The translations under genes and the position numbers were made by a program. This document shows, one piece after another, positions 7,874-27,072 of a stretch of 64,000 nucleotides of DNA. The notes under the pieces are model-generated. The model made no database searches. It worked only from the letters and a program-made list of their open reading frames with translations, and was not told the DNA's origin. Source of the DNA: an uncultured delta proteobacterium (GTDB lineage Bacteria > Myxococcota_A > Polyangia > Polyangiales > B10-G4); the NCBI GenBank assembly GCA_963727445.1, contig CAVSGI010000006.1, forward strand, positions 32,001 through 96,000. Reading direction: 5' to 3'. Every line of letters begins with the position of its first letter. Position 1 is the first letter of the stretch.

Positions 7874-7886
7874 CCGCTCCAAATGA

Positions 7887-8011: not shown

Positions 8012-8027
8012 GGGAACGGCGATTGCA
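8012..8027 (+). promoter_or_regulatory. Putative sigma-54 (-24/-12) promoter
   Basis: GGGAACGGCGATTGCA = GG-N10-GC, about 30 bp before the ATG at 8057, with GGAG RBS in between. Confidence 0.5.
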
Positions 8028-8056
8028 CTTGGGCCCGGGCACATGGAGACGAGATC

Positions 8057-9188: not shown

Positions 9189-9260
9189 TATGTGGCCCGA
9201 TGTGGGATAGTGCAAATCAGTTTGTCTAATGATTTCAGCGAAACTCCTTCGTGATCGAAG
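9171..9260. promoter_or_regulatory. Two palindromic operator-like sites in the ablB/hdac divergent region
   Basis: GCTTTGCACAGAAAGC (9171-9186) and CTTCGTGATCGAAG (9247-9260); similar to sites at 35016 and 40190. Confidence 0.55.
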
Positions 9261-9284
9261 TTCGTTCGTGTAGATTCTCGGCTC

Positions 9285-10325: not shown

Positions 10326-12034
10326 ACGATCTGACCGACGACCGCATCGACCCGGAGACACGCCTCGAGATCGAATCCTCGGTCGAGGAGTACGAGATCA
10401 AGCTGCGGCGAGAGCTGACGGAGCTCGAGGAGATGGGCTCCATCGCGCGCAAGGCGAAGAAGTTCCGAGAGCGCTTGATCCGCGCCGAGCTCGACGACGT
10501 CACCCAGGACGAAGCAGCGATGCGCCGTGAGGAGCACTCGCTGGTCAACTGGAACCTCTATCTCTCACTGGGGATCTCGATCGTGGTGATCGGCCTCGCG
10601 TTGATCTTCACCGAGTCGGTGCAGAGGTTCTCCGAGAACGCGAGCGAGTTCATCACCAACAACCTCAGCTGGTTCTACGTGCTGTTGAGCTCGGGCTTCA
10701 TCGTGTACCTCCTGTACCTGGCCTTCTCGCGCTATGGGCACGTGGTCCTCGGCGCCCCGAACGACCGCCCCGAGTTCTCCGACTTCTCCTGGTACTCGAT
10801 GCTCTTCTCCGCCGGCATGGGCGTCGGCATCCTCTTCTGGGGGGCCGCCGAGCCCGTGCACCACTACATCCATCCGCCGGTGGGCGCGCCCGAGACGGTG
10901 CAAGCTGCCAAGGCGTCGATGGCGCTCTCCGCGTTCCACTGGGGGCTGCACGCCTGGGGGATCTACACCGTCTGCGCGGTGGGCGTCGCGTACTACGGGT
11001 TCCGCAAACAGAAGAAGTACCTGATCTCCTCCAGCATCATGGACGTCATCGCCAACAAGCGGGCGAGGCGCGTCCTCAAGCTGCTGGTGGACATGGTATC
11101 GACGCTGGCCATCGTATTCGGCGTCGCGGCATCCCTGGGGATGGGCCTGATCCAGATCGCCTCCGGCCTGCACCACGTGTTCGGCGTCGATGCGGCGACG
11201 TCCGTCGGATACCTGGGAATCGTCGTGGTGATGACCGCGCTCTACCTGGTCTCTTCGTCGACGGGCCTGCAGAAGGGCATCAAGATCCTTTCGAACCTCA
11301 ACATGTTGGTGGCCCTCTTGTTGATGCTCTTCATCTTCATCGTCGGGCCCAAGCTCTTCATCCTCAAGCTCTCCGTCGACTCGATCGGCCAGTACCTGCA
11401 GCGCCTGCCAGAGCTCAGCTTCAAGGTCGACCCGTTCCAGCCCGAGTACGAAGGGTGGATGAAGGACTGGACGGTGACCTACTTCACCTGGTGGATCGCC
11501 TGGGCGCCCTTCGTGGGGATCTTCATCGCCCGCATCTCGCGTGGCCGCACCATCCGGGAGCTCGTCCTGGGCTCACTCCTCGGTCCGACGCTCTTCTGCA
11601 TCCTCTGGTTCAGCGTGTTCGGTGGGACGGCGCTACATCTCGAGGTCTTCGACGGCAACGGCATCGGCAATCTCGTCGATCAGGACGTGTCGGTGGCGCT
11701 CTTCGGCCTGTTGGATCGGCTACCTCTGACACAGGTCACCTCGGTCGTGGCCATCATCCTTCTGTTCACCTTCCTGATCACCTCGGCGGATTCGGCCACC
11801 TTCGTGATCGCGATGATGACCTCCGAGGGGGACCTCGAGCCGAGCACGAAGCTGAAGGTCGTCTGGGGTGTGCTGCTCGCGGCGCTCTGCTACCTGCTGG
11901 TCATCGGCGGCGGCATCAAGGCCCTTCAGGCCGCAGCGCTTGTCTGCGCCTTCCCCTTCGCGATAGTGCTGCTCTTGATCATCGCCTCGGTGACCTTTCG
12001 GCTATCGATTCAGATCAAGAAGAAGCGCGTCTGA
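10322..12034 (+). CDS. BCCT family (betaine/choline/carnitine) transporter with charged N-terminal extension
   Basis: SWYSMLFSAGMGVG, FHWGLHAW and WWIAWAPFVGIFIARISRGRTIRE motifs; the TTG start overlaps the HDAC stop (TTGA). Confidence 0.95.
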   Translation: MNDLTDDRIDPETRLEIESSVEEYEIKLRRELTELEEMGSIARKAKKFRERLIRAELDDVTQDEAAMRREEHSLVNWNLYLSLGISIVVIGLALIFTESVQRFSENASEFITNNLSWFYVLLSSGFIVYLLYLAFSRYGHVVLGAPNDRPEFSDFSWYSMLFSAGMGVGILFWGAAEPVHHYIHPPVGAPETVQAAKASMALSAFHWGLHAWGIYTVCAVGVAYYGFRKQKKYLISSSIMDVIANKRARRVLKLLVDMVSTLAIVFGVAASLGMGLIQIASGLHHVFGVDAATSVGYLGIVVVMTALYLVSSSTGLQKGIKILSNLNMLVALLLMLFIFIVGPKLFILKLSVDSIGQYLQRLPELSFKVDPFQPEYEGWMKDWTVTYFTWWIAWAPFVGIFIARISRGRTIRELVLGSLLGPTLFCILWFSVFGGTALHLEVFDGNGIGNLVDQDVSVALFGLLDRLPLTQVTSVVAIILLFTFLITSADSATFVIAMMTSEGDLEPSTKLKVVWGVLLAALCYLLVIGGGIKALQAAALVCAFPFAIVLLLIIASVTFRLSIQIKKKRV

Positions 12035-12035
12035 G

Positions 12036-13274
12036 TCACTCGCCGAGCCAGTTCGTGCGGATGGTCTCCATGCGGGGAGACTCCTTCAGCTCGAGGAGCT
12101 CGAGGTCCAACAGGTCCTGTAGGTTACTGCCGATGGCGACGCAGAATCCGTAGCCCACCGGCTCGTAGCTGTGCTCCGAAAGGACGAGGTCGTGGGCTGC
12201 GTCGTCGCGCGTCAGATGATAGGCGAGCACCGGCCGGTCGAAGACGACGGCTTCGGCGTCGCCGCGCTCCACCATCGCGATGGCCTCTTCCACGTCGTCT
12301 GCGGTGGCCACGCGTCCACCGTGCCGGCGCACGAAGGGAACGGAGCTGGTGCCGCGTGGCACCGCGATGGTGCGACCCTCGAGGTCGTCGATGGAATCGA
12401 TGGAGGAGGTGTCGAGGTTCGCGAGGGTCAGGGCGGTGGCGATGAAGGCGGTCATCGACGAAGTGGTGATCAGGGCGAGGATCATCCAAACGCCAGTGAT
12501 CACCCGACCGATGGGCGTCTCCGGCGCTCGGTCGCCGTATCCGACGGTGGTCATGGTGACCAGCGCCAGCCAGATCCCGTTTCCGATCCCGTGGAGCGGC
12601 TTCTCGGGGAAGTGGTCGGGGTTGGCCTTGCGCTCGGTGAGCCAGAGGAGCGTCCCGACGATGGTGAGCACGATCAGGAACGCCAGCAGGCCTCCGATGA
12701 AACCGCGCGTGAGGAACGGAGCGACCCGTGACCACATGCCGCTCTCCGGTGGCGCTGCGATGGAGATCGAGCTCGAGTAGTGGGGCTGGGTGAAGGCGAC
12801 CCGCGCCGCCCGCTCGCTGTTGATGGTGATGGGGCCGACGCCGACGTCGACCTCGCCGCGCGCCACCGCGTTGATGAGACGCAGCGCGTTGGGATAGTCG
12901 CGGTAGCTGTATCGAATGTTCGCCTGGGCCGCGATCGCTTCCCAGTCCTCCACGCTGATGCCCTTCCTGCCATCGTCGCCCTCCACCACGAAGGGGGCGC
13001 TCCCCGCGACCCCCACCACGAGCTCCATCGGCTCGGCCGGTGGCTCCACCACCGGGGGCAGGAGCTGGACGTCACTCTCCTGCGCGCCCGCTTCTCCGGC
13101 GTCGCCGGCATCGACGTCCCCCGCGTCGCCGGCATCGGTGTCCTCTGCGCGACCGGCGTCGGCGTCGCGGCCGGTGTCGCGCGCGGATGGAGGCTCCTGC
13201 TCGTCCTGCGCGCGCGCTGGCAGCGGCGCCGCGAGCATCATCAGGGCGGCGGTGAAGAGCGCCCACGCCTTCAC
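12036..13274 (-). CDS. GluR0-like ligand-gated K+ channel (SBP_bac_3 S1/S2 flanking a 2TM pore)
   Basis: Signal peptide, split amino-acid-binding domain (PF, ITINSER, FTQP, GTSS, DRP) and K+ filter TMTTVGYGD. Confidence 0.9.
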   Translation of the reverse strand: MKAWALFTAALMMLAAPLPARAQDEQEPPSARDTGRDADAGRAEDTDAGDAGDVDAGDAGEAGAQESDVQLLPPVVEPPAEPMELVVGVAGSAPFVVEGDDGRKGISVEDWEAIAAQANIRYSYRDYPNALRLINAVARGEVDVGVGPITINSERAARVAFTQPHYSSSISIAAPPESGMWSRVAPFLTRGFIGGLLAFLIVLTIVGTLLWLTERKANPDHFPEKPLHGIGNGIWLALVTMTTVGYGDRAPETPIGRVITGVWMILALITTSSMTAFIATALTLANLDTSSIDSIDDLEGRTIAVPRGTSSVPFVRRHGGRVATADDVEEAIAMVERGDAEAVVFDRPVLAYHLTRDDAAHDLVLSEHSYEPVGYGFCVAIGSNLQDLLDLELLELKESPRMETIRTNWLGE

Positions 13275-14311
13275 TCATCACCTCCCGCGGACTCGATGCG
13301 CCGCCGGGCACGCTCCACGGCGCGCTCGAGCGTCTCGACCAGCCGGCCGGCGCGCGGGCCCGCTTCCGCCACGAAGGCCTCGCGCACCTCGAGCGCCCGC
13401 TGTCGGAACGGCTCGCGCTCCTCCTCGCTCAGGTGCGTCACGCTGATCTCCGGACGCCGCGCGCGGATCTCGGCCAGCCGCTCTTCGTTGACGGCACGCT
13501 GCACCTCGTAGATCTCGGTCTGGAGCTGCGCGACGACCCCTTCGAGCATCTGCCGCCGGCCCGCGTCGAGCCCGTCGAGAAAGGCGCGGTTCGCCGCGAC
13601 GGTCGTGATGAAGAGCGCGTGGTGGGGAAACGTCATGTGGTCGGTCACCTCGTAGAAGCTCATCTCTTCGATGGCGAAGATCGGATTGACCTGTCCGTCG
13701 ATCATGTGGAGCTGGAGGCCGGAATAGACCTCGGCGTAGGGGAGGGGGGTGGCGCTGGAGCCGTAGGCGTCGTAGGTCGCGAGCAGAAGCGGGGAGGTCA
13801 TGACCCGCATGCGGATGCCCTCGAAGTCCTCCGGGGTGTGAATCGCCTCTCGGGTGGTCCACACCATCTCGCCCTCGGAGAAGGCGGCGAGGAAACCGAG
13901 CCCGCGCTCCGCATAGAGCTCGCCCATCATCTCGCGCAGCTCCGCGTCGCCCAGAGCGATGGAGTCGACCTCCTCGTCGCCGCTGAGGACGTAGTGCAGG
14001 AGGAGCGCCTGGACCTCGGGGATGATCTTGCCGAGGTGCCCTGGTGAGCTCATCGCCAGCTGCAGGGTTCCGTCGTGCAGCTGCTCGGTCACCTGGTCGG
14101 AGGTACCGAGGGTGCCGTACGGATAGACGATGACCTTCACCTCGCCGCGGGTGCGCTCGTGCACCAGCTCGGCGAAGCGCTGCGCGTAGGAGTCCTGAAC
14201 CGAGCCGCGGGTCTCCTCGATGGCGAAGCGCCAGATCTCCCCATCGTCCCGGCGCGGCTCGCAGGCGACGAGCAGCGCCATCAGGGTCAAGAGCGTGCAG
14301 AGACGGAGCAT
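13271..14311 (-). CDS. dctP: TRAP substrate-binding protein DctP, TeaA-like (ectoine), lipoprotein
   Basis: WRFAIEET.GSVQD N-terminus resembles TeaA; RVMTSP, YSGLQ and DGQVNP motifs; lipobox LVAC. Confidence 0.88.
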   Translation of the reverse strand: MLRLCTLLTLMALLVACEPRRDDGEIWRFAIEETRGSVQDSYAQRFAELVHERTRGEVKVIVYPYGTLGTSDQVTEQLHDGTLQLAMSSPGHLGKIIPEVQALLLHYVLSGDEEVDSIALGDAELREMMGELYAERGLGFLAAFSEGEMVWTTREAIHTPEDFEGIRMRVMTSPLLLATYDAYGSSATPLPYAEVYSGLQLHMIDGQVNPIFAIEEMSFYEVTDHMTFPHHALFITTVAANRAFLDGLDAGRRQMLEGVVAQLQTEIYEVQRAVNEERLAEIRARRPEISVTHLSEEEREPFRQRALEVREAFVAEAGPRAGRLVETLERAVERARRRIESAGGDE

Positions 14312-15597
14312 CAGTCGAAGGCGAGGTCTCGGAGAAAGAGCGCGATCTGTGGAAAGGCGATCAGCAGGGCGGAGGCGAGGAGCAGCATGAAGATGAAGGG
14401 CGGCGTCCCCCGGATGATGTCGAGGTAGGGCTTACGGAAGATGGCGATGGCGGTGAAGATGTCGCAGCCGAAGGGCGGCGTCGCCGAGCCGATCGCTACC
14501 TGGAGCGTCACCACCGTGCCCACCAGCACGGGGTCGATGCCAGCGGCCACCGCGACCGGGTGGAAGATCGGGGTGAGGATCAGGATCACCACGATCGGAT
14601 CGACGAACATGCAGCCGACGAAGTAGGCGACGGCGATGGTGATCATGATGGTCGCGTAGCCGCTGTCGGCGCCCAGACCGAGCGTGCCTTCGACGACTTG
14701 CGTCGGGAGCTCGGCGTAGCTGATGACCCAGCTGAAGGCAGCACCGGCGCCGACGAGGATGAAGACCACCGAGGTGACCAGGCCGGTGTCGCGTGCGATC
14801 TTCGGCAACTGACGGAAGGACAGCTGCTTGTAGACGCCGACCTCCAGGATGGCGGCGTAGAGCACGCTCACGGCGGCGGCCTCGGTGGGGCTGAAGAAGC
14901 CGGCGTAGATGCCGCCGATGATGATCACCGGAAAGCCGAGCGGTAGCGACGCACGGCGCAGCGCCGTGAGTCGCTCCGACCAGGTCGCCGGGCGCATCGC
15001 CGCGATGCCCATGCGGATGCTGTAGAGGAAGCAGTATCCGCAGAAGAGCACCAGGATGAGCAGGCCCGGCCCGATGCCCGCGATGAAGAGCTCGCCGATC
15101 GAGGTCCCGCTGACGACCCCGTAGACGATCATCCCGATGCTCGGTGGGATCAGCAGCGCGATGTCGCTGGCGTTGATGATCAGCGCGGTGCTGAAGGCGT
15201 CGTCGTAACCGGCTTCGAGCATCTTCGGGCGCAAGGGGCCGCCGATCGCGACCACCGTCGCCTGAGTGGAGCCGCTCAGCGCTCCGAAGAGCGTGCAGCT
15301 CACCGCGGTGGTGATGGGCAGGCCTCCACGGACGTGTCCCACCATCCCCATCACCAGGTCCAAGAGCCGGTCCGCCGCCTGGCCGCGGGTCATGATCTCG
15401 GCGGCGAGGATGAACATCGGCACCGCGATGAGCGCCGATGGCGTGACCCCACCGATCATCTGCTGGACCAGGGTCTCCGGGTCCGCGCCGGGGAACCAGA
15501 CCAGCGCGACCAGCAGCGCGGCCGCGATCAGAGGGACCTTCATGGGATAGCCCATGAAGAGCAGCAGCAGCATCACCCCGATGATCGCGAGCGCCAC
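14311..15597 (-). CDS. dctM: TRAP large permease DctM (TeaC-like)
   Basis: AVPMFILA, FGALSGS, LIPPSI and TPPFG motifs. Confidence 0.93.
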   Translation of the reverse strand: MALAIIGVMLLLLFMGYPMKVPLIAAALLVALVWFPGADPETLVQQMIGGVTPSALIAVPMFILAAEIMTRGQAADRLLDLVMGMVGHVRGGLPITTAVSCTLFGALSGSTQATVVAIGGPLRPKMLEAGYDDAFSTALIINASDIALLIPPSIGMIVYGVVSGTSIGELFIAGIGPGLLILVLFCGYCFLYSIRMGIAAMRPATWSERLTALRRASLPLGFPVIIIGGIYAGFFSPTEAAAVSVLYAAILEVGVYKQLSFRQLPKIARDTGLVTSVVFILVGAGAAFSWVISYAELPTQVVEGTLGLGADSGYATIMITIAVAYFVGCMFVDPIVVILILTPIFHPVAVAAGIDPVLVGTVVTLQVAIGSATPPFGCDIFTAIAIFRKPYLDIIRGTPPFIFMLLLASALLIAFPQIALFLRDLAFD

Positions 15598-15603
15598 GCC
15601 GGC

Positions 15604-16155
15604 TCAGATCCCCTCCGGAGGCAGCGGCGCCTCCCCGTATTCGTCGAGCTGCTCGAAGGACAGGTAGACCTCCTCCGAGCGAAGGTTCTGAACGAAGGCC
15701 AGCACGTATTGGATCCCGGCCAGCACGAATCCGATCGGAGCCGCGAGGTAGACGAGCCACAGCGGCACCTGAAGTGCGGGCGATACCGATCCCAGCTCGC
15801 GGACGGTGCCTAGCGAATAGCGAAGCCCGAGGTACGCGAGATAGAAGAGCAGAACCGCCGTGGTGAAGGTGATGAAGAGGCGCACCCCCTTCTTCGCCTT
15901 GTGGGGCAGGGCGTCGTAGAGCGCGGTCATCCGGATGTGCCGGCCCTTGCCCGCCGCATAGCCCAGGCCGAGGAAGGTCACGAAGACCATCAGGAACTGA
16001 CTCAGCTCCTCCGCCGACGCGAGGCTCTCGCCGAAGAGCGTGCGTCCCGCGACGTTGGTGATCGTCAGTACCGCGATGCCGAGTACGCCACCCGCGAGAC
16101 ACGTCTCCTCGATGCGGGTGACGAGCTTCGATACGCGCGCTGGCAGATCACTCAC
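15604..16155 (-). CDS. dctQ: TRAP small permease DctQ (TeaB-like)
   Basis: Four TM segments, EELS and GRHIRM motifs. Confidence 0.92.
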   Translation of the reverse strand: MSDLPARVSKLVTRIEETCLAGGVLGIAVLTITNVAGRTLFGESLASAEELSQFLMVFVTFLGLGYAAGKGRHIRMTALYDALPHKAKKGVRLFITFTTAVLLFYLAYLGLRYSLGTVRELGSVSPALQVPLWLVYLAAPIGFVLAGIQYVLAFVQNLRSEEVYLSFEQLDEYGEAPLPPEGI

Positions 16156-16237
16156 GACACTCGCGATGAGGGTTTGGATGGACGTATTTCAGGCGAATGT
16201 GACATTCTCGACAGACACCCTACACGTCACGACGCCG

Positions 16238-17407
16238 ATGCAACACCGCGACGATCTCGCATTCCCCATGGACGAGTACCTCCGCCGGCTGCGCGAGCTG
16301 CGCGAGCGCATGGCCGAGCGTGGGTTCGACGCGCTCCTGATCACGACGCCGGAGAACATCTGCTATCTCACGGGCTTCGAGAGCCCGGGGTACTACGCTT
16401 TCGAGGCATTTCTCGTCCCGATCGAGGGGGAGTGCATCATGCTCCCCCGGCGTCTCGAGGAGGCTGGCGTCCAGGCACGGACCTGGGTCACCCACATCCG
16501 GGCCTACGACGACAACGAGGATCCGATCGCCAAGGTGGTCGAGGTGCTCGCCCTCGCGTCGCTGACGGACAAGCGGATCGGCTTCGAGCGCGACTGCTGG
16601 TTCTTCACCGCCACGCAACAGGAGCGGCTCTTCGCGAAATCACCGATCACCTCCTTCGTCGATTGCAGCGGCATCGTCGAGGCGGGGCGGCTGGTGAAAT
16701 CGGAGCTCGAGATCGAGATGATGCGCAAAGCGGCTCGCTTCGCCGAGGCTGGGATGCGCGCCGGGCTCGAGGCCGTTCGCCCGGGGGCGACCGAGAACGA
16801 CGTCGCGGCCGCGATCCACTTCGCGATGATCTCGGCGGGCGGTGAGTGGCCCGCCATCTCCCCCTTCGTCGCCACGGGACACCGCGGCTCCATCGGCCAC
16901 ACCACGTGGGAGGGGGTGCCCATCGAGGAGGGACACTGCGTATTCTTGGAAGTGGGCGGGTGCTTCAAGCGCTACCACGCCGCCCTCATGCGCACCGCCT
17001 TCCTCGGCAAGCCCGACAGCCGCATCGAGCTCGCTGCGCGCACCATCGAGGACGCGATGCGTGCGGCCCTGACGCAGATCGAGCCGGGCATGCGCATCGG
17101 CGAGGTCGACGACATCAGCCGAAAGCTCATCCGAAAGGCCTCGGACCGTTTCGGGGGGATTCAGATGACGCGCTCGGGCTACTCGATCGGGATCGCCTTC
17201 CCGCCCGACTGGGGCGAAGGGCACATCATGAGCATTCGGCACCAGGATCCCCGGGTGCTGGTGCCGAACATGACCTTCCACCACATCCCCTGGGTACAGC
17301 TCCCCGGTCGCGCGGGGATCGGGATGTCCGAGACCATCCGTGTGACCGAGGACGGCTGCGAGACGCTCACGAAGTTCGATCGAAAGCTCTTCGTGGTGGA
17401 GGCGTGA
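16238..17407 (+). CDS. doeA: M24 family hydrolase, ectoine hydrolase DoeA/EutD-like
   Basis: F..EY..RL N-terminus, RYHAALMRT and GYSIGIAFPPDWGE motifs (DoeA-type); divergent from the Tea-like TRAP genes. Confidence 0.75.
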   Translation: MQHRDDLAFPMDEYLRRLRELRERMAERGFDALLITTPENICYLTGFESPGYYAFEAFLVPIEGECIMLPRRLEEAGVQARTWVTHIRAYDDNEDPIAKVVEVLALASLTDKRIGFERDCWFFTATQQERLFAKSPITSFVDCSGIVEAGRLVKSELEIEMMRKAARFAEAGMRAGLEAVRPGATENDVAAAIHFAMISAGGEWPAISPFVATGHRGSIGHTTWEGVPIEEGHCVFLEVGGCFKRYHAALMRTAFLGKPDSRIELAARTIEDAMRAALTQIEPGMRIGEVDDISRKLIRKASDRFGGIQMTRSGYSIGIAFPPDWGEGHIMSIRHQDPRVLVPNMTFHHIPWVQLPGRAGIGMSETIRVTEDGCETLTKFDRKLFVVEA

Positions 17408-18432
17408 CGCAGAAGCGCTTCTTCGCCAGCGACAACGCGTCGGGGACGCACCCGCGTGTGCTGGAGGCGCTCACGGGGGCGAATCGCGGCCACGCCCTGG
17501 CTTACGGGCACGACCCGTTCACCGAGCGCGCCGTCGAGGTACTGCGACGGCACTTCGGAGCGAGAGCGGCAGTGTACTTCGTCTTCGGTGGGACGGGCGC
17601 GAACGTTCTGTCCTTGGCCTGCGCCCTCGCGCCGACGGAGTCGGTGGTCTGCGCGCGCACTTCGCACGTCTGGAACGACGAATGCGCAGGGCCGGAGCGC
17701 TTTCTCGGCACCAAGCTCGTCCCCGCCGAGACCGAAGAGGGCAAGCTCACGCCGGCGTCCATCGATCCCCTGCTCAGGACGTCCACCAGCCCGCACGGAT
17801 CGCGCGCGGGCGTCGTGACCGTGAGCCAGGCGACCGAGTGGGGCACCGTCTACACGCCGGAGGAGCTGTCGGCGCTGTCGGCGCTGGCCCACACGCGCGG
17901 CGCGCGGCTTCACGTCGACGGCGCCCGCCTCGCCAACGCAGCGGCGTCACTCGACACCTCGCTGGGCGCGCTGGTCGCTGACACCGGCGTGGACGTGCTC
18001 AGCCTCGGCGGGACCAAGAACGGGATGATGTTCGGTGAAGCGGTGGTGATCCTCGAGCCCGAGCTCGCGAAGCACGCGGCACACCTGCAGAAGCAGGCGA
18101 TGCAGCTGCCGTCGAAGATGCGCTTCGTGGCGGCTCAGATCGAGGCCCTCTTCGGCGCGGACCTCCACCTCGAAAACGCGCGCAAGGCCAACGCCGCCGC
18201 CGCGCGTCTCGGCCAGGGCCTCGGCGCCATCGACGGGGTCGAGGTCGTCGTCCCCGTTGAGGCCAACGCTGTCTTCGCGCGCATGTCGCCCGCGCTCACC
18301 GAGGCCCTGCGCGAGGATTTCGTCTTCCACTGCTGGGAAGGCGACGTCGTACGTCTGATGTGCGCCTTCGACACCACCGACGAGGACGTGGACGCCTTCG
18401 TCGCGGCTGCGCGCCGCGGCGTTCAGTCGTGA
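17404..18432 (+). CDS. ltaE: Low-specificity L-threonine aldolase (PLP)
   Basis: FASDN, GGTGAN, QATEWGTVY, HVDGARLANA and GGTKNG motifs; GTG start overlaps the doeA stop. Confidence 0.9.
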   Translation: MTQKRFFASDNASGTHPRVLEALTGANRGHALAYGHDPFTERAVEVLRRHFGARAAVYFVFGGTGANVLSLACALAPTESVVCARTSHVWNDECAGPERFLGTKLVPAETEEGKLTPASIDPLLRTSTSPHGSRAGVVTVSQATEWGTVYTPEELSALSALAHTRGARLHVDGARLANAAASLDTSLGALVADTGVDVLSLGGTKNGMMFGEAVVILEPELAKHAAHLQKQAMQLPSKMRFVAAQIEALFGADLHLENARKANAAAARLGQGLGAIDGVEVVVPVEANAVFARMSPALTEALREDFVFHCWEGDVVRLMCAFDTTDEDVDAFVAAARRGVQS

Positions 18433-19406
18433 GGCACGGCCACGAGGCCCAGGCAGTCGCCGCGCTCGGTCGCGGCGAGGGCGCGCTGGCCGACGAAGAC
18501 GCCGTCCAGGGGCGCGCGGTGCGCCACCGGCTCGCGCATCGACCCCGCGCGTCGATGGACGCAGCCCACCACCTGTCCGTGGGTGACGTTCTCACCGAGG
18601 GAGACCGTGGGCTCGAAGAGCCCGTCGTCGGTGGCGATGACGAAGCCTTCGTCAGGGACGCGTAGCACGCGGGTCTCTGCGCTCGCTGCGGGCTCGCCCT
18701 CGAGCGCCCCGAGGTGGCGCAGAACGTTGCGCGCCCCGGCGCTCGCCAGCGAGGCGGTGCGGGGCGTGACCCGACCCCCGCCTCCGAGCTCGGTCGACAA
18801 GAAGAGCTTGCCCGCGCGCTCGACCTCGGTGTCGAGCATTCCCTGATCGTCGAGCTCGGATACGACAAGCGCGTGCGGTGCGCCGAAGGCGCGGGCGAGA
18901 GCCAGCGTCTCCTTCGTGCGCACCTCGTCGTCGAAGGCGTGAACCAGGGTGGTGGGAACGAACTCGAGCGAGCGCCCACCCGAGTGGATGTCCACGACCG
19001 CCGTGGCGCGCGACACGCACTCGGCGTGGATGAAGTGCGCGATCCGCTCCGTCACCGTGCCGCGCGGATCGCCCGGAAAGACGCGATTCATGTTCTTGCC
19101 GTCGAGCGGAGACAGACGCGTGCTGGCGGCGACGGCGGGCGCGTTCAACTCCGGCACGATGATCACCTGACCGCGCACCTCGCTGGCTTCGAGGCTCTTG
19201 GCGAGCTCGCCGAGGGCGATCGGTCCCTCTGGCTCGTCGCCGTGGCTGCCGCCGGTGAGCAGCACACAGGGGCCGTCACTCGTGCCGCGAATCGACACGA
19301 TGGGGACGAGGACCGAGCCCCAGGCGGAGCTCTCGCGAGAGTGGGGAAGGGAGAGCCGTCCGACGTGCTTGCCAGGGGCATCGAGAGAGATGTTCAGCGC
19401 GCTCAT
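18423..19406 (-). CDS. doeB: N-alpha-acetyl-diaminobutyrate deacetylase DoeB/EutE-like (AstE/AspA family)
   Basis: LPHSRESSAWGSVLVP, GGSHGDEPEG, NMNRVFPG, DIHSGG and TELGGGG motifs. Confidence 0.82.
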   Translation of the reverse strand: MSALNISLDAPGKHVGRLSLPHSRESSAWGSVLVPIVSIRGTSDGPCVLLTGGSHGDEPEGPIALGELAKSLEASEVRGQVIIVPELNAPAVAASTRLSPLDGKNMNRVFPGDPRGTVTERIAHFIHAECVSRATAVVDIHSGGRSLEFVPTTLVHAFDDEVRTKETLALARAFGAPHALVVSELDDQGMLDTEVERAGKLFLSTELGGGGRVTPRTASLASAGARNVLRHLGALEGEPAASAETRVLRVPDEGFVIATDDGLFEPTVSLGENVTHGQVVGCVHRRAGSMREPVAHRAPLDGVFVGQRALAATERGDCLGLVAVPHD

Positions 19407-20730
19407 CAGAGCACCTCGAGGTAGAGCTCGCGCTCGAGAGGCGTGACCTGTCGCTCGAATCGCTCGCGTTCGGTCTTCTTCACCCGCAGGAAGAGATCCC
19501 AGAAGCGCTCGCCCAGATACGCCGGCAGGATCTTCGCCTCGTCGGCCGCGGCGAGCGCCCGCTCCCAGGTCCCGGGCAGCGCGCGAAGGGAGTGAGTCGT
19601 CACGTCGTCGCGGATTCTCGTTCGGCGCGTCGAGCTTCGCGCCGAGACCGTGATGCAACCCGGCGAGCACCACCGCGACCACCAGGTAGGGGTTGGCGTC
19701 TGCGCCGGCGACCCGGTGCTCGACACGCGGAGCGCCGGGGGGAATGCGCACCGCAGCCGTCCGGTTGTTGCGGCCCCAGCTGGCCGTGTTGGCCACGAAG
19801 GCGCCGGGGACGAAGCGCCGAAAGGAGTTGGCGTTGGGGGCGAGGAGCGCGGTCGCCTCGGCCATGGTGGCGCACAGGCCGCCTACCGCGTGGCGGAGTG
19901 CATCGTTGACCTCCGGCTCGGAGGCGAAGAGGGCGGAGCCATCACGGCCCAGGGCGCTCGCGTGCACGTGCATGCCGCTACCCGGACGGTCGGTCCAGGG
20001 CTTGGCCATGAAAGTGGCGCGGCAGCCGTGGTCTCGCGCGACGTTGCGCACCGCGTGCTCGAAGATGAGCGCGTCCGCGACGGCGCGCAGGGCGTCGTCT
20101 CGATGATGGAGATTGATCTCGTAGTGACCTTCGCCGGACTCGGCGACGGTGGTCCCGGTCCTCACGCCCATGGCTTCACAGGCGGCATGGACGTCCTCGA
20201 CGAAGGCCGAGCGTTCGTCCATGCGCACGGCGGCGTAGGACTGGACCGCGCCGCCCAGCGACGAGGGAAGGGGGGACGCGGAAGCCGCCGTGTCTCCCTG
20301 GTGTAGATGGAACTCGAGCTCGACCGCGACGGTGACCGCGAGGTCGTCGCCGGCGAGCCTTTCGCAGACGCGCCCGAGCGCGGAGCGTGGATCGGCGAAG
20401 AAGGGGCTGCCGTCCTCGTCTTCCATGGAGACCAGCGCCTGCGCTCTGGGGCCGTGAGGATCTCCGCTCGCTCCAGGGGACGCGGGTGAGTGTTCCTTCG
20501 ACGATCTTGCAGTATCGGTCGCGTTCTCCCTCTTCGGCGACGATGCCGGTCCCTCCGACCAGGAGCCCGGAGGAGTCCATCGAGAAGGTGGAGCCGGGGA
20601 TGCGCATCCCCTCCGAGGCGATGGAGGCGAAGTCGGCGCGGCGGATGCGCTTGCATCGCAGCACGCCGTTGAGGTCGGGCAGGAGCAGATCCACCGCGCG
20701 AATGTCGTCGTCGAGAGCGTCGTCAGTCAC
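19406..20730 (-). CDS. Glutamine synthetase family gamma-glutamyl-amine ligase (PuuA-like), frameshifts near 19590 and 20450-20490
   Basis: DLNGVLRCKR, ELEF, E.GEGHYEIN, FMAKP, GSGMHVH, WGRNNRT and EHRVAGADANPY motifs spread over three ORFs. Confidence 0.85.
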
Positions 20731-20759
20731 GCCGCGACCCTAACATCTCGCGCCCGCCC

Positions 20760-22460
20760 TCACACGGACGCCACCGCCGTGGTCCAGGAGGGCTCTGCGC
20801 TGCTGACCCACGCCCCGTCCGCCGCGCGCGTCGCGGCGCACACGCGACCGAAGCCGAAGCTGTCGACCTCCTGATCGAGGACGGTGAGCTCGTGTCCGAG
20901 CGCCACGAGCGCCTCTCGAACCGAGGGCGCGACGCGACCGTCGACGTAGGTTGCGCCGCCCTGGGAGTGGATCCGCGGCAACGCGAGGGCGTCGTCGATG
21001 GCCATGTCGTGGTCGACGACGTGGATCAACGCCGAAAGGACCGCCGTCTCGATGCGATAGCCGCCGGAGCCTGCGGCGGCGAAGACGGCGTCTCCGTCTC
21101 GCGCCGCGACGAGGGCGGGCGCGCCGAACATGGGCATCTTGTGGGGCGCGATGCTCGAAGGCCGCCCGGGGCGTGGGTCGAAGTAGCTCATCCCGTTGTT
21201 CAAGAAGACGCCGGCCTCGCTCGCATAGACCAGCGACCCGAAGGTCCATCCGACGGCGGTGATGATCGACACCGCGTTGCCCTCGCGGTCGGCGGCCACG
21301 ATCTGACTCGTGCCGCCTCGGGGAACGGGCGCCGGCCCGTGTGGCCTTTCCCCCAGCGGCTCCGCGCCTGCCTCGAAGGGCCACGGGTCGCCCGCCGCGA
21401 CCGGGCGGGGCAGGGCGCGATCGGAGCGGATCTGCGCGCGTCGCTCTGCGGCGTACGCCCTGCTCCGCAGGCCGGACACCGGGCTCGGGGCGTGCTCGGG
21501 ATCGCCGTAGTGCGTCAGGCAATCGGTGAAGGAGATGGCCAGCGCTTCGGCGACGAGGTGCAGATGCGCGGCGTCTTTCGGCGAGAGGTCGCCGAGCGCG
21601 AAGCCGTCCAGGATCTGAAGCACCTCGTAGGCGACGTGATCGCCACAGGTGGTCAGCGCGAGATCCCGATAGCGCGCCGGCGGCTCGCGAACGATGCGCG
21701 GCCGGTAGGCGGCGAGGTCCTCCTCGCTGAGGATGCCGCCGACGCTGCGGACGGCGCCGGCGATGGCGCGCGCCACCTCCCCGCGGTGAAAGCCGTCGGC
21801 GCCTTCGGCGGCGATGCACCTCAGCGTTCGGGCGAGTGCGCTGGTGTCGAGCCGTGCGCCCGTCGCCTCCTGCGGTGCGAGCCGGGGCGCGAGGCCCCCT
21901 GGCAACAAGACCGCGGCGGTCTCGCGCATGCGCCGGATGCGCGCTTGGTGCTCGGCGACCGCCAGCACGTCGCGCCAGGTGAAGGACACGCCCCTGTCGG
22001 CAGCCTCGATGGCCGGGGCGAGGACCGCCTCTCGCGGGAGCCTCCCGCGGAGCGCGTGCGCTTCGCAGAGCCCCGCCACCGCCCCAGGGACGGCGACCGA
22101 CAGACCGCCGTAACGCTGCAGCTCCGAGGCGGGGTGCCCGTAATAGGTGGGGGGCGCGTCGGGGATGGGGAACATCGTAGCGTGCGCCCCCGCCGGGGCG
22201 CGCACGTATCCATCCACCGAGAGGCTCTCCCCTCGGGCCGCATCCCAGAGCGAGAGGTGCGCGAAGCCGCCCAGACCGCAGTCGACCTGTTCGACGACGA
22301 ACGCGGTGAAGGCGGCGGCCACGGCCGCGTCCACAGCGTTGCCTCCCTCCTCCAGCATCCGCGCGCCGGCCGCGGCCGAAGCCGGATGGCCCGCGGCGCA
22401 GATCCCGTCGCCGCGAAGCGCCGGGTGCGCGCGGGCCGCGTGATGCGCGCTCCGCAGATC
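20760..22460 (-). CDS. Gamma-glutamyltransferase family protein (start uncertain)
   Basis: GGNAVDAAVA, VPG, TSQIVAADREGN (nucleophile Thr), FGS, LNNG, GSGG and PRIH motifs. Confidence 0.9.
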   Translation of the reverse strand, partial: DLRSAHHAARAHPALRGDGICAAGHPASAAAGARMLEEGGNAVDAAVAAAFTAFVVEQVDCGLGGFAHLSLWDAARGESLSVDGYVRAPAGAHATMFPIPDAPPTYYGHPASELQRYGGLSVAVPGAVAGLCEAHALRGRLPREAVLAPAIEAADRGVSFTWRDVLAVAEHQARIRRMRETAAVLLPGGLAPRLAPQEATGARLDTSALARTLRCIAAEGADGFHRGEVARAIAGAVRSVGGILSEEDLAAYRPRIVREPPARYRDLALTTCGDHVAYEVLQILDGFALGDLSPKDAAHLHLVAEALAISFTDCLTHYGDPEHAPSPVSGLRSRAYAAERRAQIRSDRALPRPVAAGDPWPFEAGAEPLGERPHGPAPVPRGGTSQIVAADREGNAVSIITAVGWTFGSLVYASEAGVFLNNGMSYFDPRPGRPSSIAPHKMPMFGAPALVAARDGDAVFAAAGSGGYRIETAVLSALIHVVDHDMAIDDALALPRIHSQGGATYVDGRVAPSVREALVALGHELTVLDQEVDSFGFGRVCAATRAADGAWVSSAEPSWTTAVASV

Positions 22461-22464
22461 GATC

Positions 22465-23732
22465 TCAGCCCGCGGCGCCCAGGAGCGTCTCGTCGAAGGG
22501 GAAGCGGCTGATGCGCTCGATGCCGTGCTCGGTCACGAGCACCTCCTCTTCGAGCTTCACGCCTTCGCGGCCGCCCACCTCGGCGACGTAGCTCTCGACG
22601 CAGAGCACCATCAGGGCTCGATCGCGCCCTCGGTGCCGTGAGCGCCCCAGTCGAGGAGGTGTGGAATGAACGGCGTCTCGCCGTGCATCCCGCAGCCGTG
22701 CATCACCGAGGTGTAGCGACGGGCGGCGATGCGCTCGGGCATCTTCCAGGCGCGCTCGGCGATCTCGCGGTAGGTCATGCCCGGGGCGATGATCGACATG
22801 TTGTGGCGGAGCTGGTCGTAGGCCATGCGGTAGAGCGCCTTCTGCTCGGCGCTGGGGCGCCCGGGACCGCAGAAGAAGGTCCGCGAGAAGTCGGAGTAGT
22901 AGCCGAAGCAGCCGATGGTGTCGGTGTCCACCGCGACCAGCTCGCCCGGGCGCACCAGTCGCCCGCTCGCCTCGTTGAACCAGGGGTTGGTGCGCGTCCC
23001 CGAGCTCACCAGGCGCGTCTCGACCATCTCGCCGCCGCGCGCGATGACCGCGCCGCACCATCTTCGGCGAAGAGCGCGTTCTCGCTCACGCCAGGCCGGA
23101 TCTCCTCGCGAAGCTCGTCGACCGCGGCCTCGCTGCTCGCCATGCTCAGCTCGCAGGCAGGCGATCTCCTCGGGGGTCTTGATCCGGCGGCAGTGGAGCA
23201 TGTCCTGCCGGCAGTCCACCGACCGCCAGCCCCGCCGCTTCGAGGGCGAGGGCCAGGTGATGGAAGCACCGGTCGAGGCCGACGCGTCTTGGTGCCCGAG
23301 CCGTGGGTTCGCACCAGGTCCGCGATCTCGGCCGCGAAGGGTGCGGCCGTCTCGAGGTCGCTGTCCGCGGACCGAGGACCAGACCACCTTCGAGGTGCGC
23401 GCCTCGTCGATCGTGTCGAGCATCTGCGAGACGTGGGCGCTGTGCGGATACTCGAAGAGGACCACCGGGCCCTCGGCAGGCACGTAGATGTAGCGGCTCG
23501 AGTTCCGCAGGAAGTAGCCGAACATGTTGCGCGAGCCCGTGGCGTAGCGCTGGTTGTTCGGGTCGAAGAGGACGACGCCGGCGTAGTCGCGCTCGCGGAG
23601 CATCGCGCGCAGGCGCGCCAGGCGCCCGCGGCGGAGCCGGGCGGTGTCGACGCCGTTGGGCTCGGCGTCGGTGAGGGTCATCCCCGGCCGCTTGGCGGCG
23701 AGGAGCCGGCTCGCGGGCAGGCCGGCTACCAT
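22465..23732 (-). CDS. M24B Xaa-Pro peptidase-fold enzyme, DddP-like subfamily (several frameshifts)
   Basis: LFDPNNQRYATGSRNM, ETRLVSSGTRTNPWFNE, DTD..G..GY..DFSRT, MHGCG and VLCVES...GVKLEE..L motifs. Confidence 0.8.
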
Positions 23733-23736
23733 TTCA

Positions 23737-24591
23737 TCAGTCGACGAGGCCATCGAGTCGCTCCTCTTTCCCGCTCGTGTGTGCTTCGGTCACGCGCCCG
23801 AAGAGCTGGCGCGTGCGCTCGGGCTTGCCGATCACGCCCGGCTCCTTGGCGTAGGCGAGGATCGCGGTCAGGCGCGGGCGGTCACCATCGACCTCGGTGA
23901 CGCGATGCAGGGTGAAGCGGCCGAGGAAGAGTTGAAGGTCGCCCGACGCGAGCTCGAGCTGACGCACCTCGGAACGATCTTCGCCTCTCAAGACGCGTCC
24001 CACGCGATCGTAACGCTCGTCTCCCGGCGCCCGGATGTTCGGGCAGTACTCGAAGACGCCGCCCTTCTCCGCCGGCGACAGGAGCGTGGAGACGATGAAC
24101 TCGTTGGTGTCGTAGTGCCACGGATGCTCCGCGCCGCGCGGGAGCACGTTGACCACCAGGGAGGCGAGGGGATCGGCGTATTCGTGGATCACCTCTTCGT
24201 GCAGGCAGTCGGCGACGAAACGCTGGAAGGCGAGCGAGGCGTAGAGTCGTCTCAGGAGCGCCTCGTCGGGGATGCGGTCCTTGGCCACGAAGCCGTGCGT
24301 GCGCTTCATGAAGATCCGCCGCGGGTGATCCTCGGGAAAGCTCGGGTCGTCGAGGGTCGAATACGCGTTCACCCAGCGGGGGTGGTAGTAGGCCTCGCCG
24401 AGGAGCGGGAGCGCCTCGGTGCGCATCCGCTGGACAGCTTCGCCCTCCAAGAAGCCGCGGAGCACGCTGCATCCGGTGCTGGCGAGCTCGCGCCGCACCT
24501 CCTCCACGATGCCTCGATAGGTCTCGCGGTGCGGGGCGTCCAAGGGGTAGCGGGCGAGGTCCACGACCCCGTGCAGAGAGGCGCTTTGCAT
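23737..24591 (-). CDS. Fe(II)/2OG oxygenase of the BesD/HalD-like family, hydroxylase type (HxD)
   Basis: WHYDTNEF facial triad, GGVFEY, GDLQLF and LHRVT..R motifs. Confidence 0.75.
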   Translation of the reverse strand: MQSASLHGVVDLARYPLDAPHRETYRGIVEEVRRELASTGCSVLRGFLEGEAVQRMRTEALPLLGEAYYHPRWVNAYSTLDDPSFPEDHPRRIFMKRTHGFVAKDRIPDEALLRRLYASLAFQRFVADCLHEEVIHEYADPLASLVVNVLPRGAEHPWHYDTNEFIVSTLLSPAEKGGVFEYCPNIRAPGDERYDRVGRVLRGEDRSEVRQLELASGDLQLFLGRFTLHRVTEVDGDRPRLTAILAYAKEPGVIGKPERTRQLFGRVTEAHTSGKEERLDGLVD

Positions 24592-24673
24592 GGTTTCACT
24601 CTGGCGAGGCGCGGGGCGGCGGTGAAACGAGTTCTGCCAATACCCTCATCAGCCGGGCGAATGGCTGGGCCGC

Positions 24674-25561
24674 GTGCTACGGGAGATCGCCATGCGGCCG
24701 ACCCTGGATACCGATCTCTTGCGGGCCTTCGTCGCGGTCGCGGAGCTCGGCAGCATCACCCGGGCCACGCCCTTTCTGGGGCTCACGCAGTCCGCGGTCA
24801 GCCTGCAGATCCGCCGCCTCGAGGACCAGCTCGGCACGCAGCTCTTCCACCGATCGAGCCGCGGCGTTCAGCTCACCTCCGCCGGCGAAGCCTTCGCGGT
24901 GCGGGCGCGGCAGATCCTCGACATGCACGCGCGCGCGGTCGACAGCCTGTGGCGCGCTCGTGGCGACGAGGCGGAGATCCGCCTCGGCATCAACGACGTC
25001 TACGCCGCGCGGCATCTCGCGCCCGTCCTCGACGAGCTCCGGCGCCGACACCCCGAAGCGCGGCCCATCGTCGTCTGCGACGTGAGCACCGCGCTGGCCC
25101 TGGCGTTCGATCGCGGCGCCCTCAATCTGTGCATCTCCCTGCGTCACGACCCGGCTTCCGAGGCGGAGGTCGTCGCCCGCGAGGCGCTGGTCTGGGTCGC
25201 CTCTCGGGAGCTGGCGCTCTCGCCCGGGCGGCCCGTCCCCCTCGCCGTCTATCCCGAGTATTGCGTCTTCCGCGCGCGCGCGCTCCGGGCCCTCGCGGCG
25301 GCGGAGCGCGACTGGCAGATCGTGTTCACCAGTCAGGGGCTCGCGGCCATCAATCTGGCCATCGACCGGGGCTGGGGCGTGGCGGTCAAGACGGCGAGCA
25401 CGGTGGAGGCGCGCTGGCGCGTCCTCGGCGAAGCCGACGGCCTGCCCGAGCTCGGGAGCGTCGAGGTGGAGCTGCGCCGCTCACCCACGAGCGACACCGC
25501 TCCGGTCAGAGATCTCGGCGACCTCCTCGCGGAGCGGCTTCGTCACGCGGCTCGGGCTTGA
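24674..25561 (+). CDS. LysR-type transcriptional regulator (probable start ATG 24692)
   Basis: LRAFVAVAE...TQSAVSLQIRRLE HTH; divergent from the oxygenase operon. Confidence 0.93.
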   Translation: MLREIAMRPTLDTDLLRAFVAVAELGSITRATPFLGLTQSAVSLQIRRLEDQLGTQLFHRSSRGVQLTSAGEAFAVRARQILDMHARAVDSLWRARGDEAEIRLGINDVYAARHLAPVLDELRRRHPEARPIVVCDVSTALALAFDRGALNLCISLRHDPASEAEVVAREALVWVASRELALSPGRPVPLAVYPEYCVFRARALRALAAAERDWQIVFTSQGLAAINLAIDRGWGVAVKTASTVEARWRVLGEADGLPELGSVEVELRRSPTSDTAPVRDLGDLLAERLRHAARA

Positions 25562-25565
25562 GGGC

Positions 25566-26567: not shown

Positions 26568-26772
26568 AGAAACCTCCTCAGGTCGTGCGAGATGCTCGCC
26601 TCGGTTCGTCGCGAACGCCCTGGATTCGAGGCGTGCGGGATGCGCACTTCTGGCGCATCAAACGAGGCATCCGCCACCGCGCTGGACCGTTCAAAAACGA
26701 ATGATCACACGAGGCGAACTCGTACAACATAAGACGGATTGCGCCGAGCGCAACCCCCTCAGACGCGAAATG

Positions 26773-27072
26773 TCAGCGCTTTTTTCGGCGGATGCGCCAG
26801 CTCTTGCGGACGCCGGCGCGCGGGCGCTCGTAGACGATGGCCCCGACGGCTTCGAGCCTGTCCGCGAGATAGGCGGCGCGTGAAGGGCCGACGCGAAGCA
26901 TCTTCTGGAGAGCTTCGGAGATCACCCGCTTGCCTCTTCGATAGCCGCGAGGATGCCGGCGACCCATGCGCCGCTGGAGCTTCGGGACGAGCGTCCACAC
27001 GTCCAGTCGACTCTTGACCTCGACGACCGGCTCCGAGGGCTCGTGGCGCTGGAGCTCGATCTCTTCCCGCAT
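26773..27072 (-). CDS. Small basic hypothetical protein, winged-helix-like (paralog of 7547..7873)
   Basis: PRGYRRGK...ADRLEAVGAIVYE motif; starts immediately after the upstream stop. Confidence 0.65.
   Translation of the reverse strand: MREEIELQRHEPSEPVVEVKSRLDVWTLVPKLQRRMGRRHPRGYRRGKRVISEALQKMLRVGPSRAAYLADRLEAVGAIVYERPRAGVRKSWRIRRKKR

Follow-up and report, generated by a model that had tools for sequence, protein, structure and literature searches.

A DoeA-like hydrolase gene coupled to a threonine-aldolase-family gene suggests a possible aldolase route for hydroxyectoine breakdown in a salt-adapted myxobacterium

We analyzed a 64-kb stretch of DNA (about 68% G+C; positions 32,001 to 96,000 of contig CAVSGI010000006.1, hereafter the window) from an uncultured, salt-adapted myxobacterium. 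In this window, a gene for a DoeA-like hydrolase of the M24 family is translationally coupled to a gene for a pyridoxal phosphate (PLP)-dependent enzyme of the L-threonine aldolase family, beside a TRAP importer of the TeaABC/UehABC type and a gene for a DoeB/EutE-like deacetylase. The linkage of M24 and aldolase genes looks non-random across genomes, and the pairing looks functional. Our leading reading, which we hold tentatively and as a whole, is that window positions 13271-25561 form an accessory island for ectoine uptake and breakdown, in which import and ring opening of ectoine or hydroxyectoine would be followed by retro-aldol cleavage of an intermediate, replacing the EutABC enzymes. 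The genome assembly comprises 9.47 Mb in 27 contigs and is 85.6% complete, and all genome-wide absences reported here are valid for an assembly of that completeness. The content of the window looks myxobacterial, including a PEGA Ser/Thr kinase, sigma-54 activators, and MopE/PPC proteins.

The initial annotation had proposed, for positions 16238..19406, a hydroxyectoine route built from DoeA, DoeB, and a threonine aldolase. Its account of the gene arrangement is accurate: bases 17404-17407 read GTGA, where the M24 gene (16238..17407, plus strand, 389 aa) ends in a TGA stop that shares bases with the GTG start of the aldolase gene (17404..18432, plus strand, 342 aa), and the aldolase gene converges on the doeB-like gene (18423..19406, minus strand, 327 aa) with a 10-base overlap of the 3′ ends. 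The adjoining Tea-like importer was also correctly recognized. Its genes lie on the minus strand, divergent from the M24 gene, and encode the small permease DctQ (15604..16155; PF04290, 103.7 bits), the large permease DctM (14311..15597; PF06808, 363.8 bits; TIGR00786, 349.3 bits, above the cut-off of 268), and a DctP-family solute-binding protein (dctP, 13271..14311) of the TeaA/UehA kind by its Protein Data Bank (PDB) matches. The annotated span has the right coordinates but stops short, as the doeB-like gene is the final gene of a minus-strand operon that starts at 24591.

The M24 protein carries the Creatinase_N (PF01321) and Peptidase_M24 (PF00557) domains, giving it the "pita-bread" architecture over its full length. 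Its best NCBIfam models are NF038259 "ectoine_DoeA_2" (458.8 bits, aligned over 1-385 of 386) and TIGR02993 (246.5 bits), both matched end to end, while the best NCBIfam prolidase model gave 127 bits. The nearest solved structure is Halomonas elongata DoeA (6twj, 224.8 bits), followed by a prolidase at 117.7 bits. On these matches we annotate it as a DoeA_2-like M24 amidohydrolase and a candidate ectoine/hydroxyectoine ring hydrolase.

The aldolase belongs to the Beta_elim_lyase family of fold-type I PLP enzymes (PF01212, 162.8 bits) and matches the Pseudomonas-type L-threonine/phenylserine aldolases of solved structure over its full length at 220-247 bits (5vye, 247.5 bits; 7w0i; 1v72, 220.7 bits). 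The alignment to 5vye begins at residue 4, which agrees with the GTG start, and it brings together the GGTKNG lysine, the HxDGAR motif, the N-terminal SDN, and H-x-x-x-DE, which we take to be the PLP lysine and substrate-binding motifs. The protein scores under the NCBIfam cut-offs of LtaE NF007825 (PRK10534; 39.6 against 312 bits), presumably the model of the E. coli-type low-specificity L-threonine aldolase, and of GntG NF041359 (78.8 against 230 bits).

The deacetylase has an AstE/AspA-family domain (AstE_AspA_cat, PF24827, 142.4 bits), reaches 319.2 bits on TIGR02994 (under the cut-off of 402.7), and aligns with solved EutE structures (6twl, 268.5 bits over residues 5-324; 3na6, 270.8 bits), so that we annotate it as a DoeB/EutE-like N-acetyl-diaminobutyrate deacetylase. 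The closest solved matches of the TRAP binding protein are 4pfi (231 bits), TeaA (3gyy, 230.5 bits; 2vpn, 227.9 bits), and UehA (3fxb, 226.9 bits), with the next-best solved TRAP binder at 123.5 bits. Relative to 3gyy it keeps the Arg motif (mRvmTsP against iRtmTnP) and the Asn motif (dgqvNPiF against dgqeNPiF); where TeaA has a Trp after the Asn motif, both this protein and 4pfi have Ala. We assume that the Arg, Asn, and Trp of TeaA are ectoine-contacting residues. The host genome holds a single DoeA-like and a single DoeB-like gene.

To place these genes among their relatives, we performed a pattern scan covering one genome per species, which returned 349 M24 relatives, and analyzed the best 80 loci; a metagenome scan added 80 further loci. 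By tblastn with the window proteins, a DoeB-like gene was found in 33 of the 80 genome loci, an aldolase in 2, TRAP genes in 1, and a glutamine-synthetase-like (GS-like) gene in 4, all cyanobacterial. The commonest neighbor clusters, whose counts are approximate given a reduced set of open reading frames (ORFs) and crude ORF calling in high-GC loci, were SBP_bac_3 (41 loci), GntR (40), Cys/Met-metabolism PLP enzymes (28), ABC ATPases (20), and aldehyde dehydrogenases (19). An EutB-like gene at least 48% identical to that of one actinomycetotal genome discussed below (G042) was present in 20. This make-up of SBP_bac_3/ABC, GntR, aldehyde dehydrogenase, and EutB matches published ectoine-utilisation clusters as far as the accessible text of two reports describes them (PMC13188858, PMC5924519). 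A same-order relative of the host (G005) has the gene order dctM-dctP-doeA-doeB, with TRAP proteins 61% and 84% identical to those of the window and a DoeA that passes NF038259 (608.2 bits). That the locus is ectoine-related, as initially annotated, is thus upheld both by the proteins nearest to its binder, M24 enzyme, and deacetylase (TeaA/UehA, DoeA, and EutE) and by the Ehu, EutB, and aldehyde dehydrogenase genes found with its relatives.

The enzymes of the established hydroxyectoine branch were searched for across the whole host genome. This search gave 0 matches for eutA, 0 for eutC, and no EutB at the family level, returning only generic dehydratases (best 201.3 bits against a cut-off of 413.35), and so extended to the genome an absence that had been claimed for the window. 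The accompanying claim that doeC and doeD are lacking in the window holds with one proviso: no aldehyde dehydrogenase is encoded there, but EctB, a biosynthetic diaminobutyrate transaminase of the family of DoeD, is encoded at 31839-33335.

We next asked where the M24-aldolase junction recurs. A quick maximum-likelihood tree of the M24 family (130 rows, LG+G4, SH-aLRT support) was built after excluding matches with less than 90% coverage or less than 35% identity, as well as L034 with its internal stop. The window M24 protein is one of six members of a clade with 100% support (window, L013, L014, L100, L015, and L101). Two members, encoded in metagenome-assembled genomes (MAGs) of an Acidimicrobiia bacterium (L013) and an uncultured Actinomycetota bacterium (L014), are 67-68% identical to the window protein, and in both an aldolase gene lies directly 3′ of the M24 gene. 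In a metagenome contig (L106), the two genes join end to start as they do in the window, and the encoded M24 protein is 91% and the aldolase 77-78% identical. An M24 protein (P0121, 93% identical) and an aldolase (P0003, 79% identical) both come from 2278-bp contigs and may lie on a single one. Further database relatives of the M24 protein are P0122, 77% identical and encoded on a 112-kb contig, and P0133, from Symmachiella dynata. An apparent DoeA-aldolase fusion in L014 was rejected, as it reflects overlapping frames in high-GC DNA with the two matches in different frames.

A tree of the aldolases (49 rows: the window protein, 16 from loci, and 32 unevenly picked from 120 listed database proteins) places those of L013 and L014 in a well-separated lineage different from that of the window enzyme. 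Orthologous M24 genes are therefore followed by aldolases of two lineages, which indicates that the pairing arose at least twice. Two more members of the clade, L015 (1-4830) and L101 (397-3344), belong to a Planctomycetaceae lineage, with M24 proteins 69% identical to that of the window, and show the order EctD, M24, dctQMP. No ectoine synthase is encoded in the MAG that contains L015 (G043; just 24.9 bits on the EctC model), so that its ectoine hydroxylase stands in an uptake or degradation setting rather than a biosynthetic one.

The aldolase of the window has a patchy distribution of its own. Searches recovered it from 4 of 41 related genomes (E ≤ 1e-20) and from 12 of 401 Myxococcota genomes (E ≤ 1e-60), the host included in both counts. 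Within the host genome there is no further close copy, as the match that ranks next is 29% identical. Its absence from most relatives fits a housekeeping role poorly. A genome of the same genus (G001, 86% complete) has neither the M24 gene nor the aldolase gene, and a DNA search of it with window positions 7000-26900 returned nothing from 13271-25561; the matches were confined to a flanking channel-like gene and an ORF near 25.8-26.5 kb.

The window aldolase lineage is also tied to a second group of M24 genes. In three other Myxococcota (G020, G613, and G677), aldolases 50-53% identical to that of the window lie beside members of a second DoeA-like M24 clade, together with aldehyde dehydrogenase genes. 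These M24 proteins are 27-30% identical to the window M24 protein, and their best NCBIfam model is again NF038259, at about 220 bits. In G613 the genes form a compact aldehyde dehydrogenase-M24-aldolase operon with unrelated flanks, and in G677 the M24, aldolase, and aldehyde dehydrogenase-like genes stand side by side. G020 carries on one strand genes for M24, an SSF carrier, an ArgE-type enzyme of the acetylornithine deacetylase family (332.7 bits, cut-off 297.7), sarcosine-oxidase-like subunits, the aldolase, and an aldehyde dehydrogenase. Divergent from this operon is the only EctD gene of that genome above the cut-off (343.9 against 336.5 bits), and EctC is encoded on another contig. Together with L106, L013, and L014, these loci confirm that the linkage of doeA-like and aldolase genes extends beyond the genome in which it was first noticed.

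In the scheme that we favor, the TeaABC/UehABC-type TRAP system would import ectoine or 5-hydroxyectoine and the DoeA_2-like M24 enzyme would open the tetrahydropyrimidine ring, giving N-acetyl-3-hydroxy-2,4-diaminobutyrate from hydroxyectoine. Beta-hydroxy-alpha-amino acids with a free alpha-amino group are the substrate class of threonine aldolases, and the products of 5-hydroxyectoine hydrolysis carry their hydroxyl on the carbon that adjoins the alpha-carbon. By Cahn-Ingold-Prelog priorities, the (4S,5S) ring would yield a (2S,3S), L-allo-threonine-like product, a configuration that low-specificity threonine aldolases accept. Such an amino acid would arise either directly, as the gamma-N-acetyl isomer, or after deacetylation by the DoeB-like enzyme, and the co-translated aldolase would split the 3-hydroxy intermediate into glycine and (N-acetyl)aminoacetaldehyde, in place of EutABC. 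Two variants agree with the observations. In the first, the scheme of the initial annotation, M24 would form the alpha-N-acetyl product, DoeB would deacetylate it, and the aldolase would release glycine and aminoacetaldehyde. In the second, M24 would form the gamma-N-acetyl isomer and the aldolase would release glycine and N-acetylaminoacetaldehyde with no need of a deacetylase. This second variant would explain the lack of a deacetylase in the genome of L013 (G041) and in the three-gene module of G613, as well as the aldehyde dehydrogenase in related modules. Plain ectoine could be converted through DoeB to diaminobutyrate and onward to aspartate semialdehyde by reversible EctB. We infer every substrate and product in this scheme; what we observed are the gene families, the overlap of start and stop, the recurrence of the pair, and the absence of eutA and eutC.

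A broader proposal, possible though doubtful in our judgment, is that a "hydroxylate, open, retro-aldol" route for ectoine exists in several phyla, bypassing EutABC and the branch from diaminobutyrate to aspartate. An EctD-type hydroxylase would make 5-hydroxyectoine, or the cell would import it, and a DoeA-like M24 enzyme would open the ring. A DoeB- or ArgE-type deacetylase would then act, or none would be needed with the gamma-N-acetyl isomer, before the aldolase released glycine and an aldehyde dehydrogenase or a gamma-glutamyl shuttle detoxified the amino-aldehyde. The net outcome would be two glycines and acetate from ectoine. In the version encoded in the window, the GS-like and gamma-glutamyltranspeptidase-family genes near doeB would supply the shuttle and protect the amine.

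Several observations weigh against the aldolase scheme. The M24 protein falls short of both equivalog cut-offs (458.8 against 575 bits for NF038259, 246.5 against 613 for TIGR02993), and the NF038259 model can be passed within this order, as a same-order relative (L094) does so at 608.2 bits. With all three enzymes under the equivalog cut-offs, they are relatives of the named enzymes rather than proven members, and their true substrates could differ. DoeA, DoeB, and the aldolase do not form a single conserved unit: the doeB-like gene belongs to a separate operon here, no DoeB-like gene was found in G041, and G043 has weak matches of at most 90 bits. (The genome of L014, G042, has one DoeB-like gene, at the end of another contig.) G043 has a member of the M24 clade and no aldolase at E ≤ 1e-20, and G677 has the M24-aldolase pair and no EctD. 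The predicted aldehyde is a further difficulty, as the window contains neither an aldehyde dehydrogenase gene (the best tblastn matches are on other contigs) nor any other obvious aminoacetaldehyde-handling gene; the proposal of free aminoacetaldehyde as a product accordingly finds no counterpart in the cluster. An M24 neighbor is present in just 3 of the 14 other Myxococcota aldolase loci and the other 11 have no M24 or aldehyde dehydrogenase gene within about 10 kb, which implies that the aldolase family is not dedicated to an ectoine role. Finally, the window M24 clade is very rare, so that the sample is small: of the 80 best genome loci from the 349 relatives, 3 belong to it, and it appeared in 1 of 401 Actinomycetota genomes (the one at the center of that scan) and 2 of 401 Planctomycetota genomes (again the one at the center, plus a 47% identical relative). 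In the metagenome scan the close clade was found only on the short contigs L100, L101, L106, and L151. A look for sequencing runs that contain window positions 15600-19500 turned up no RNA run and three DNA metagenome runs, each with a share of 0.09 or less of the sampled words.

These points bear differently on the alternatives. An unlikely but serious one is that the window encodes ordinary ectoine catabolism (TRAP importer, M24, DoeB, and EctB) and that the aldolase is a bystander, a low-specificity threonine aldolase of glycine/threonine metabolism. The enzyme does look like a normal L-threonine aldolase, with 247 bits to that of Pseudomonas putida and its motifs intact, and thousands of homologs about 55% identical to it are named threonine aldolase. 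EctB is present in the window, the aldolase lacks an M24 or aldehyde dehydrogenase neighbor in the 11 Myxococcota loci just described, and none of the 33 M24-family loci with a DoeB-like gene has an aldolase. A bystander is harder to reconcile with a stop/start overlap that is kept in a relative, with two separate aldolase lineages behind orthologous M24 genes, with a further M24 clade tied to the window aldolase lineage in three genomes, and with the absence of the aldolase from most relatives.

We regard as rather improbable a second alternative, in which the M24-aldolase pair acts on some other imported compound, for instance a small peptide, a cyclic amidine other than the ectoines, or a beta-hydroxy amino acid that bears an N-acyl or N-amidino group. 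Hydrolysis by M24 would then free a beta-hydroxy-alpha-amino acid for the aldolase, and the resemblance to ectoine enzymes would reflect family membership only. The sub-threshold M24 scores are compatible with this idea, as is the position of the window clade, which is distinct from the NF038259-passing clade of L094. So are the surroundings of the actinomycetotal pairs: the genes around L013 encode luciferase-like monooxygenases and acyl-CoA dehydrogenases but neither a transporter nor a DoeB, and the gene after the aldolase in L014 encodes an AGCS-type (alanine/glycine) amino-acid carrier rather than an ectoine transporter. The window operon of GS-like, gamma-glutamyltranspeptidase, second M24, and HalD-like genes, moreover, fits no known ectoine pathway. 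Against another substrate stand the TeaA/UehA-like binder of the adjoining importer, the EctD gene and the same type of TRAP system in the nearest clade members L015 and L101, and the wide company of DoeB/EutE-like genes around the M24 family. A synthetic direction for the aldolase, joining glycine and an aldehyde into a beta-hydroxy amino acid that would go into a natural product or osmolyte derivative, is highly improbable: threonine aldolases are reversible and the best NCBIfam model is that of the GntG biosynthetic family, but its cut-off is far from reached, the neighboring genes encode an importer, hydrolases, and a deacylase and include none for a biosynthetic scaffold, and the aldehyde dehydrogenases of related modules fit the removal of an aldehyde product.

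A further suggestion of the initial annotation was that glycine from the aldolase might feed a betaine pathway in the same cluster. The methyltransferase genes are real, a GSMT at 37363-38166 (507.4 bits, cut-off 350) and an SDMT-like gene at 36524-37366 (374.9 bits, cut-off 550), but they are some 18 kb distant, past the ectD, ectC, ectB, ectA, and ask genes (30568-35022), in separate operons. Proximity is all that links these genes to the aldolase, and we give osmolyte interconversion through glycine to betaine a low probability. Between ask and the SDMT-like gene, at about 35151-36500 on the minus strand, is a gene for an SSF carrier that is 47% identical to the SSF carrier of the G020 M24/aldolase operon and may be an osmolyte importer. 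In that G020 locus (L187, G020:C39, 2119-14557), the sarcosine-oxidase-like subunits are of the heterotetrameric SoxB, SoxA, and SoxG type, which the proposed scheme does not account for.

The minus-strand operon that ends with the doeB-like gene begins with a gene for a BesD/HalD-family Fe/2-oxoglutarate enzyme (23737..24591; PF23169, 55.4 bits) and continues with genes for a second M24 protein (22611..23753), DddP-like and far under the cut-off, a gamma-glutamyltranspeptidase-family protein (20760..22358; PF01019, 333.7 bits; TIGR00066, 240.7 bits, below the cut-off of 357.9), and a GS-like protein of the gamma-glutamyl-amine ligase type (19407..20730), directly upstream of doeB. Divergent from this operon, on the plus strand, is a gene for a LysR-type regulator (24674..25561). 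In an alignment with lysine halogenases and hydroxylases, the H-x-G of the solved halogenases is replaced by H-x-D in the HalD-like enzyme, a difference that we take to separate hydroxylases from halogenases. This suggests that it is a free-amino-acid hydroxylase, which might hydroxylate a non-hydroxylated intermediate. The GS-like and gamma-glutamyltranspeptidase genes could, speculatively, provide a gamma-glutamyl shuttle that masks an amine, of the sort used in putrescine utilisation. On the other side of the island, the gene for a ligand-gated ion-channel-like protein (12036..13274, minus strand; SBP_bac_3 with Lig_chan/Ion_trans_2), which resembles prokaryotic glutamate-receptor-like channels, appears to be co-translated with the osmolyte importer. 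Its start overlaps the dctP stop, so that the TRAP operon probably ends with this gene; the DNA match to it in G001 means that it may belong to the flank and not to the island.

Some of these genes are broken in the assembly. The GS-like gene changes frame near 20480 and again near 19600, so that it occupies three frames in all, and the reading frame of the second M24 gene is disturbed in the region 22611-23830. We considered whether both are pseudogenes and rejected this, because panB (51608-52500), an essential gene in the same window, is likewise split across three reading frames, which makes indel errors of the assembly the likelier cause. Such errors seem to be frequent and may also depress the completeness estimate. 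The gene for an SSF carrier at 28806-30543 is probably split across frames as well. The M24 hydrolase, the aldolase, and the deacetylase each align unbroken and at full length to their own families.

The survey of M24 loci brought up other arrangements. In G042, locus L194 (G042:C8, 80-4444) has the DoeB-like gene divergent from genes for an EutB-like dehydratase (382.9 bits, cut-off 413), L-threonine 3-dehydrogenase, and glycine C-acetyltransferase (the latter two with 521 and 607 bits against cut-offs of 380 and 460); these threonine-catabolic genes could provide an alternative processing of threonine-like 3-hydroxy-diaminobutyrate, or be neighbors by chance. Four cyanobacterial (Elainellaceae) loci (L048, L052, L058, and L062) have both GS-like and doeB genes, which in L048 and L052 are adjacent, as in the window. 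L048 (9001-16567) gathers in one cluster DoeA-like, GS-like, and DoeB-like genes, two ABC permeases, EctC (190.7 bits, cut-off 128), EctD (397.4 bits, cut-off 336.5), and SBP_bac_3, so that degradative and synthetic-type ectoine enzymes occur together and a GS-like ligase lies between DoeA and DoeB. A Cys/Met-metabolism PLP enzyme of the gamma-lyase/synthase family is a frequent neighbor of DoeA-like genes that have no adjacent DoeB; the 28 loci of this kind are mostly from Trueperaceae/Deinococcales (for example, L086, 5715-7109). A homoserine dehydrogenase neighbor occurs in 9 loci. This may point to a further undescribed fate of diaminobutyrate. In Chloroflexota, the DoeA-DoeB clusters L017, L020, L021, L026, L032, L033, L043, and L044 contain a second M24 paralog, 36-42% identical to the G020-type M24 protein and in most cases beside an aldehyde dehydrogenase gene, which recalls the "two eutD homologs" that a passage of PMC13188858 reports for other phyla.

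The system closest to the window is that of Ruegeria pomeroyi and Halomonas elongata, where EutD/EutE (DoeA/DoeB) and UehABC/TeaABC represent the same three protein families. In R. pomeroyi, EutD opens the ring of ectoine and of hydroxyectoine alike, and EutE then removes the acetyl group (PMC8739950, PMC13188858). The window differs in that its M24 enzyme and deacetylase are under the equivalog cut-offs and encoded in different, converging operons, in that eutABC, ssd/atf (doeC/doeD), and enuR/asnC are missing and a LysR regulator is present instead, and in that its hydrolase gene has an aldolase gene as a translationally coupled partner. EutABC are described, in the text accessible to us, as racemase-like, threonine-dehydratase-like, and cyclodeaminase-like reductase proteins with a proposed role in hydroxyl removal (PMC8739950, PMC5924519), and as needed for hydroxyectoine use with their exact activities stated to be unknown (PMC8739950). 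The problem that they solve is the same one, the 3-hydroxy intermediates of opened hydroxyectoine; in the window eutA and eutC are absent, and C-C cleavage by the aldolase would yield glycine, not diaminobutyrate. Compared with the low-specificity L-threonine/phenylserine aldolases (5vye, 7w0i, and 1v72), the window enzyme is alike in sequence and set apart by its coupling to a DoeA-like amidohydrolase. Hydroxylation followed by retro-aldol cleavage is also the principle behind the biosynthesis of carnitine (by trimethyllysine hydroxylase, HTML aldolase, and aldehyde dehydrogenase) and of guanitoxin (GntD/GntG). There, a Fe/2-oxoglutarate hydroxylase, a glycine-releasing PLP aldolase, and an aldehyde dehydrogenase act together, a set paralleled in G020 by EctD, the aldolase, and the aldehyde dehydrogenase; those pathways differ in being biosynthetic and acting on other amino acids, and the window aldolase is distant from the GntG model. 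We found no threonine-aldolase, retro-aldol, or aminoacetaldehyde route for ectoine or hydroxyectoine in the full-text literature searched, a scope outside which many subscription papers fall, and the term "aldolase" does not occur in the accessible parts of PMC13188858, PMC8739950, PMC5924519, and PMC13342039.

The M24-aldolase pairing may represent a route of hydroxyectoine breakdown that has yet to be described. In marine and soil environments, ectoine and hydroxyectoine rank among the major osmolytes and form part of the dissolved organic nitrogen pool. If the scheme is true, hydroxyectoine could be degraded in a second way with a chemistry of its own, through C-C cleavage by an aldolase, with glycine predicted as a product in place of aspartate, and the likely consumers of ectoines would extend to lineages outside the surveys covered in the accessible published text. 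The hypothesis is concrete and open to a direct, inexpensive test.

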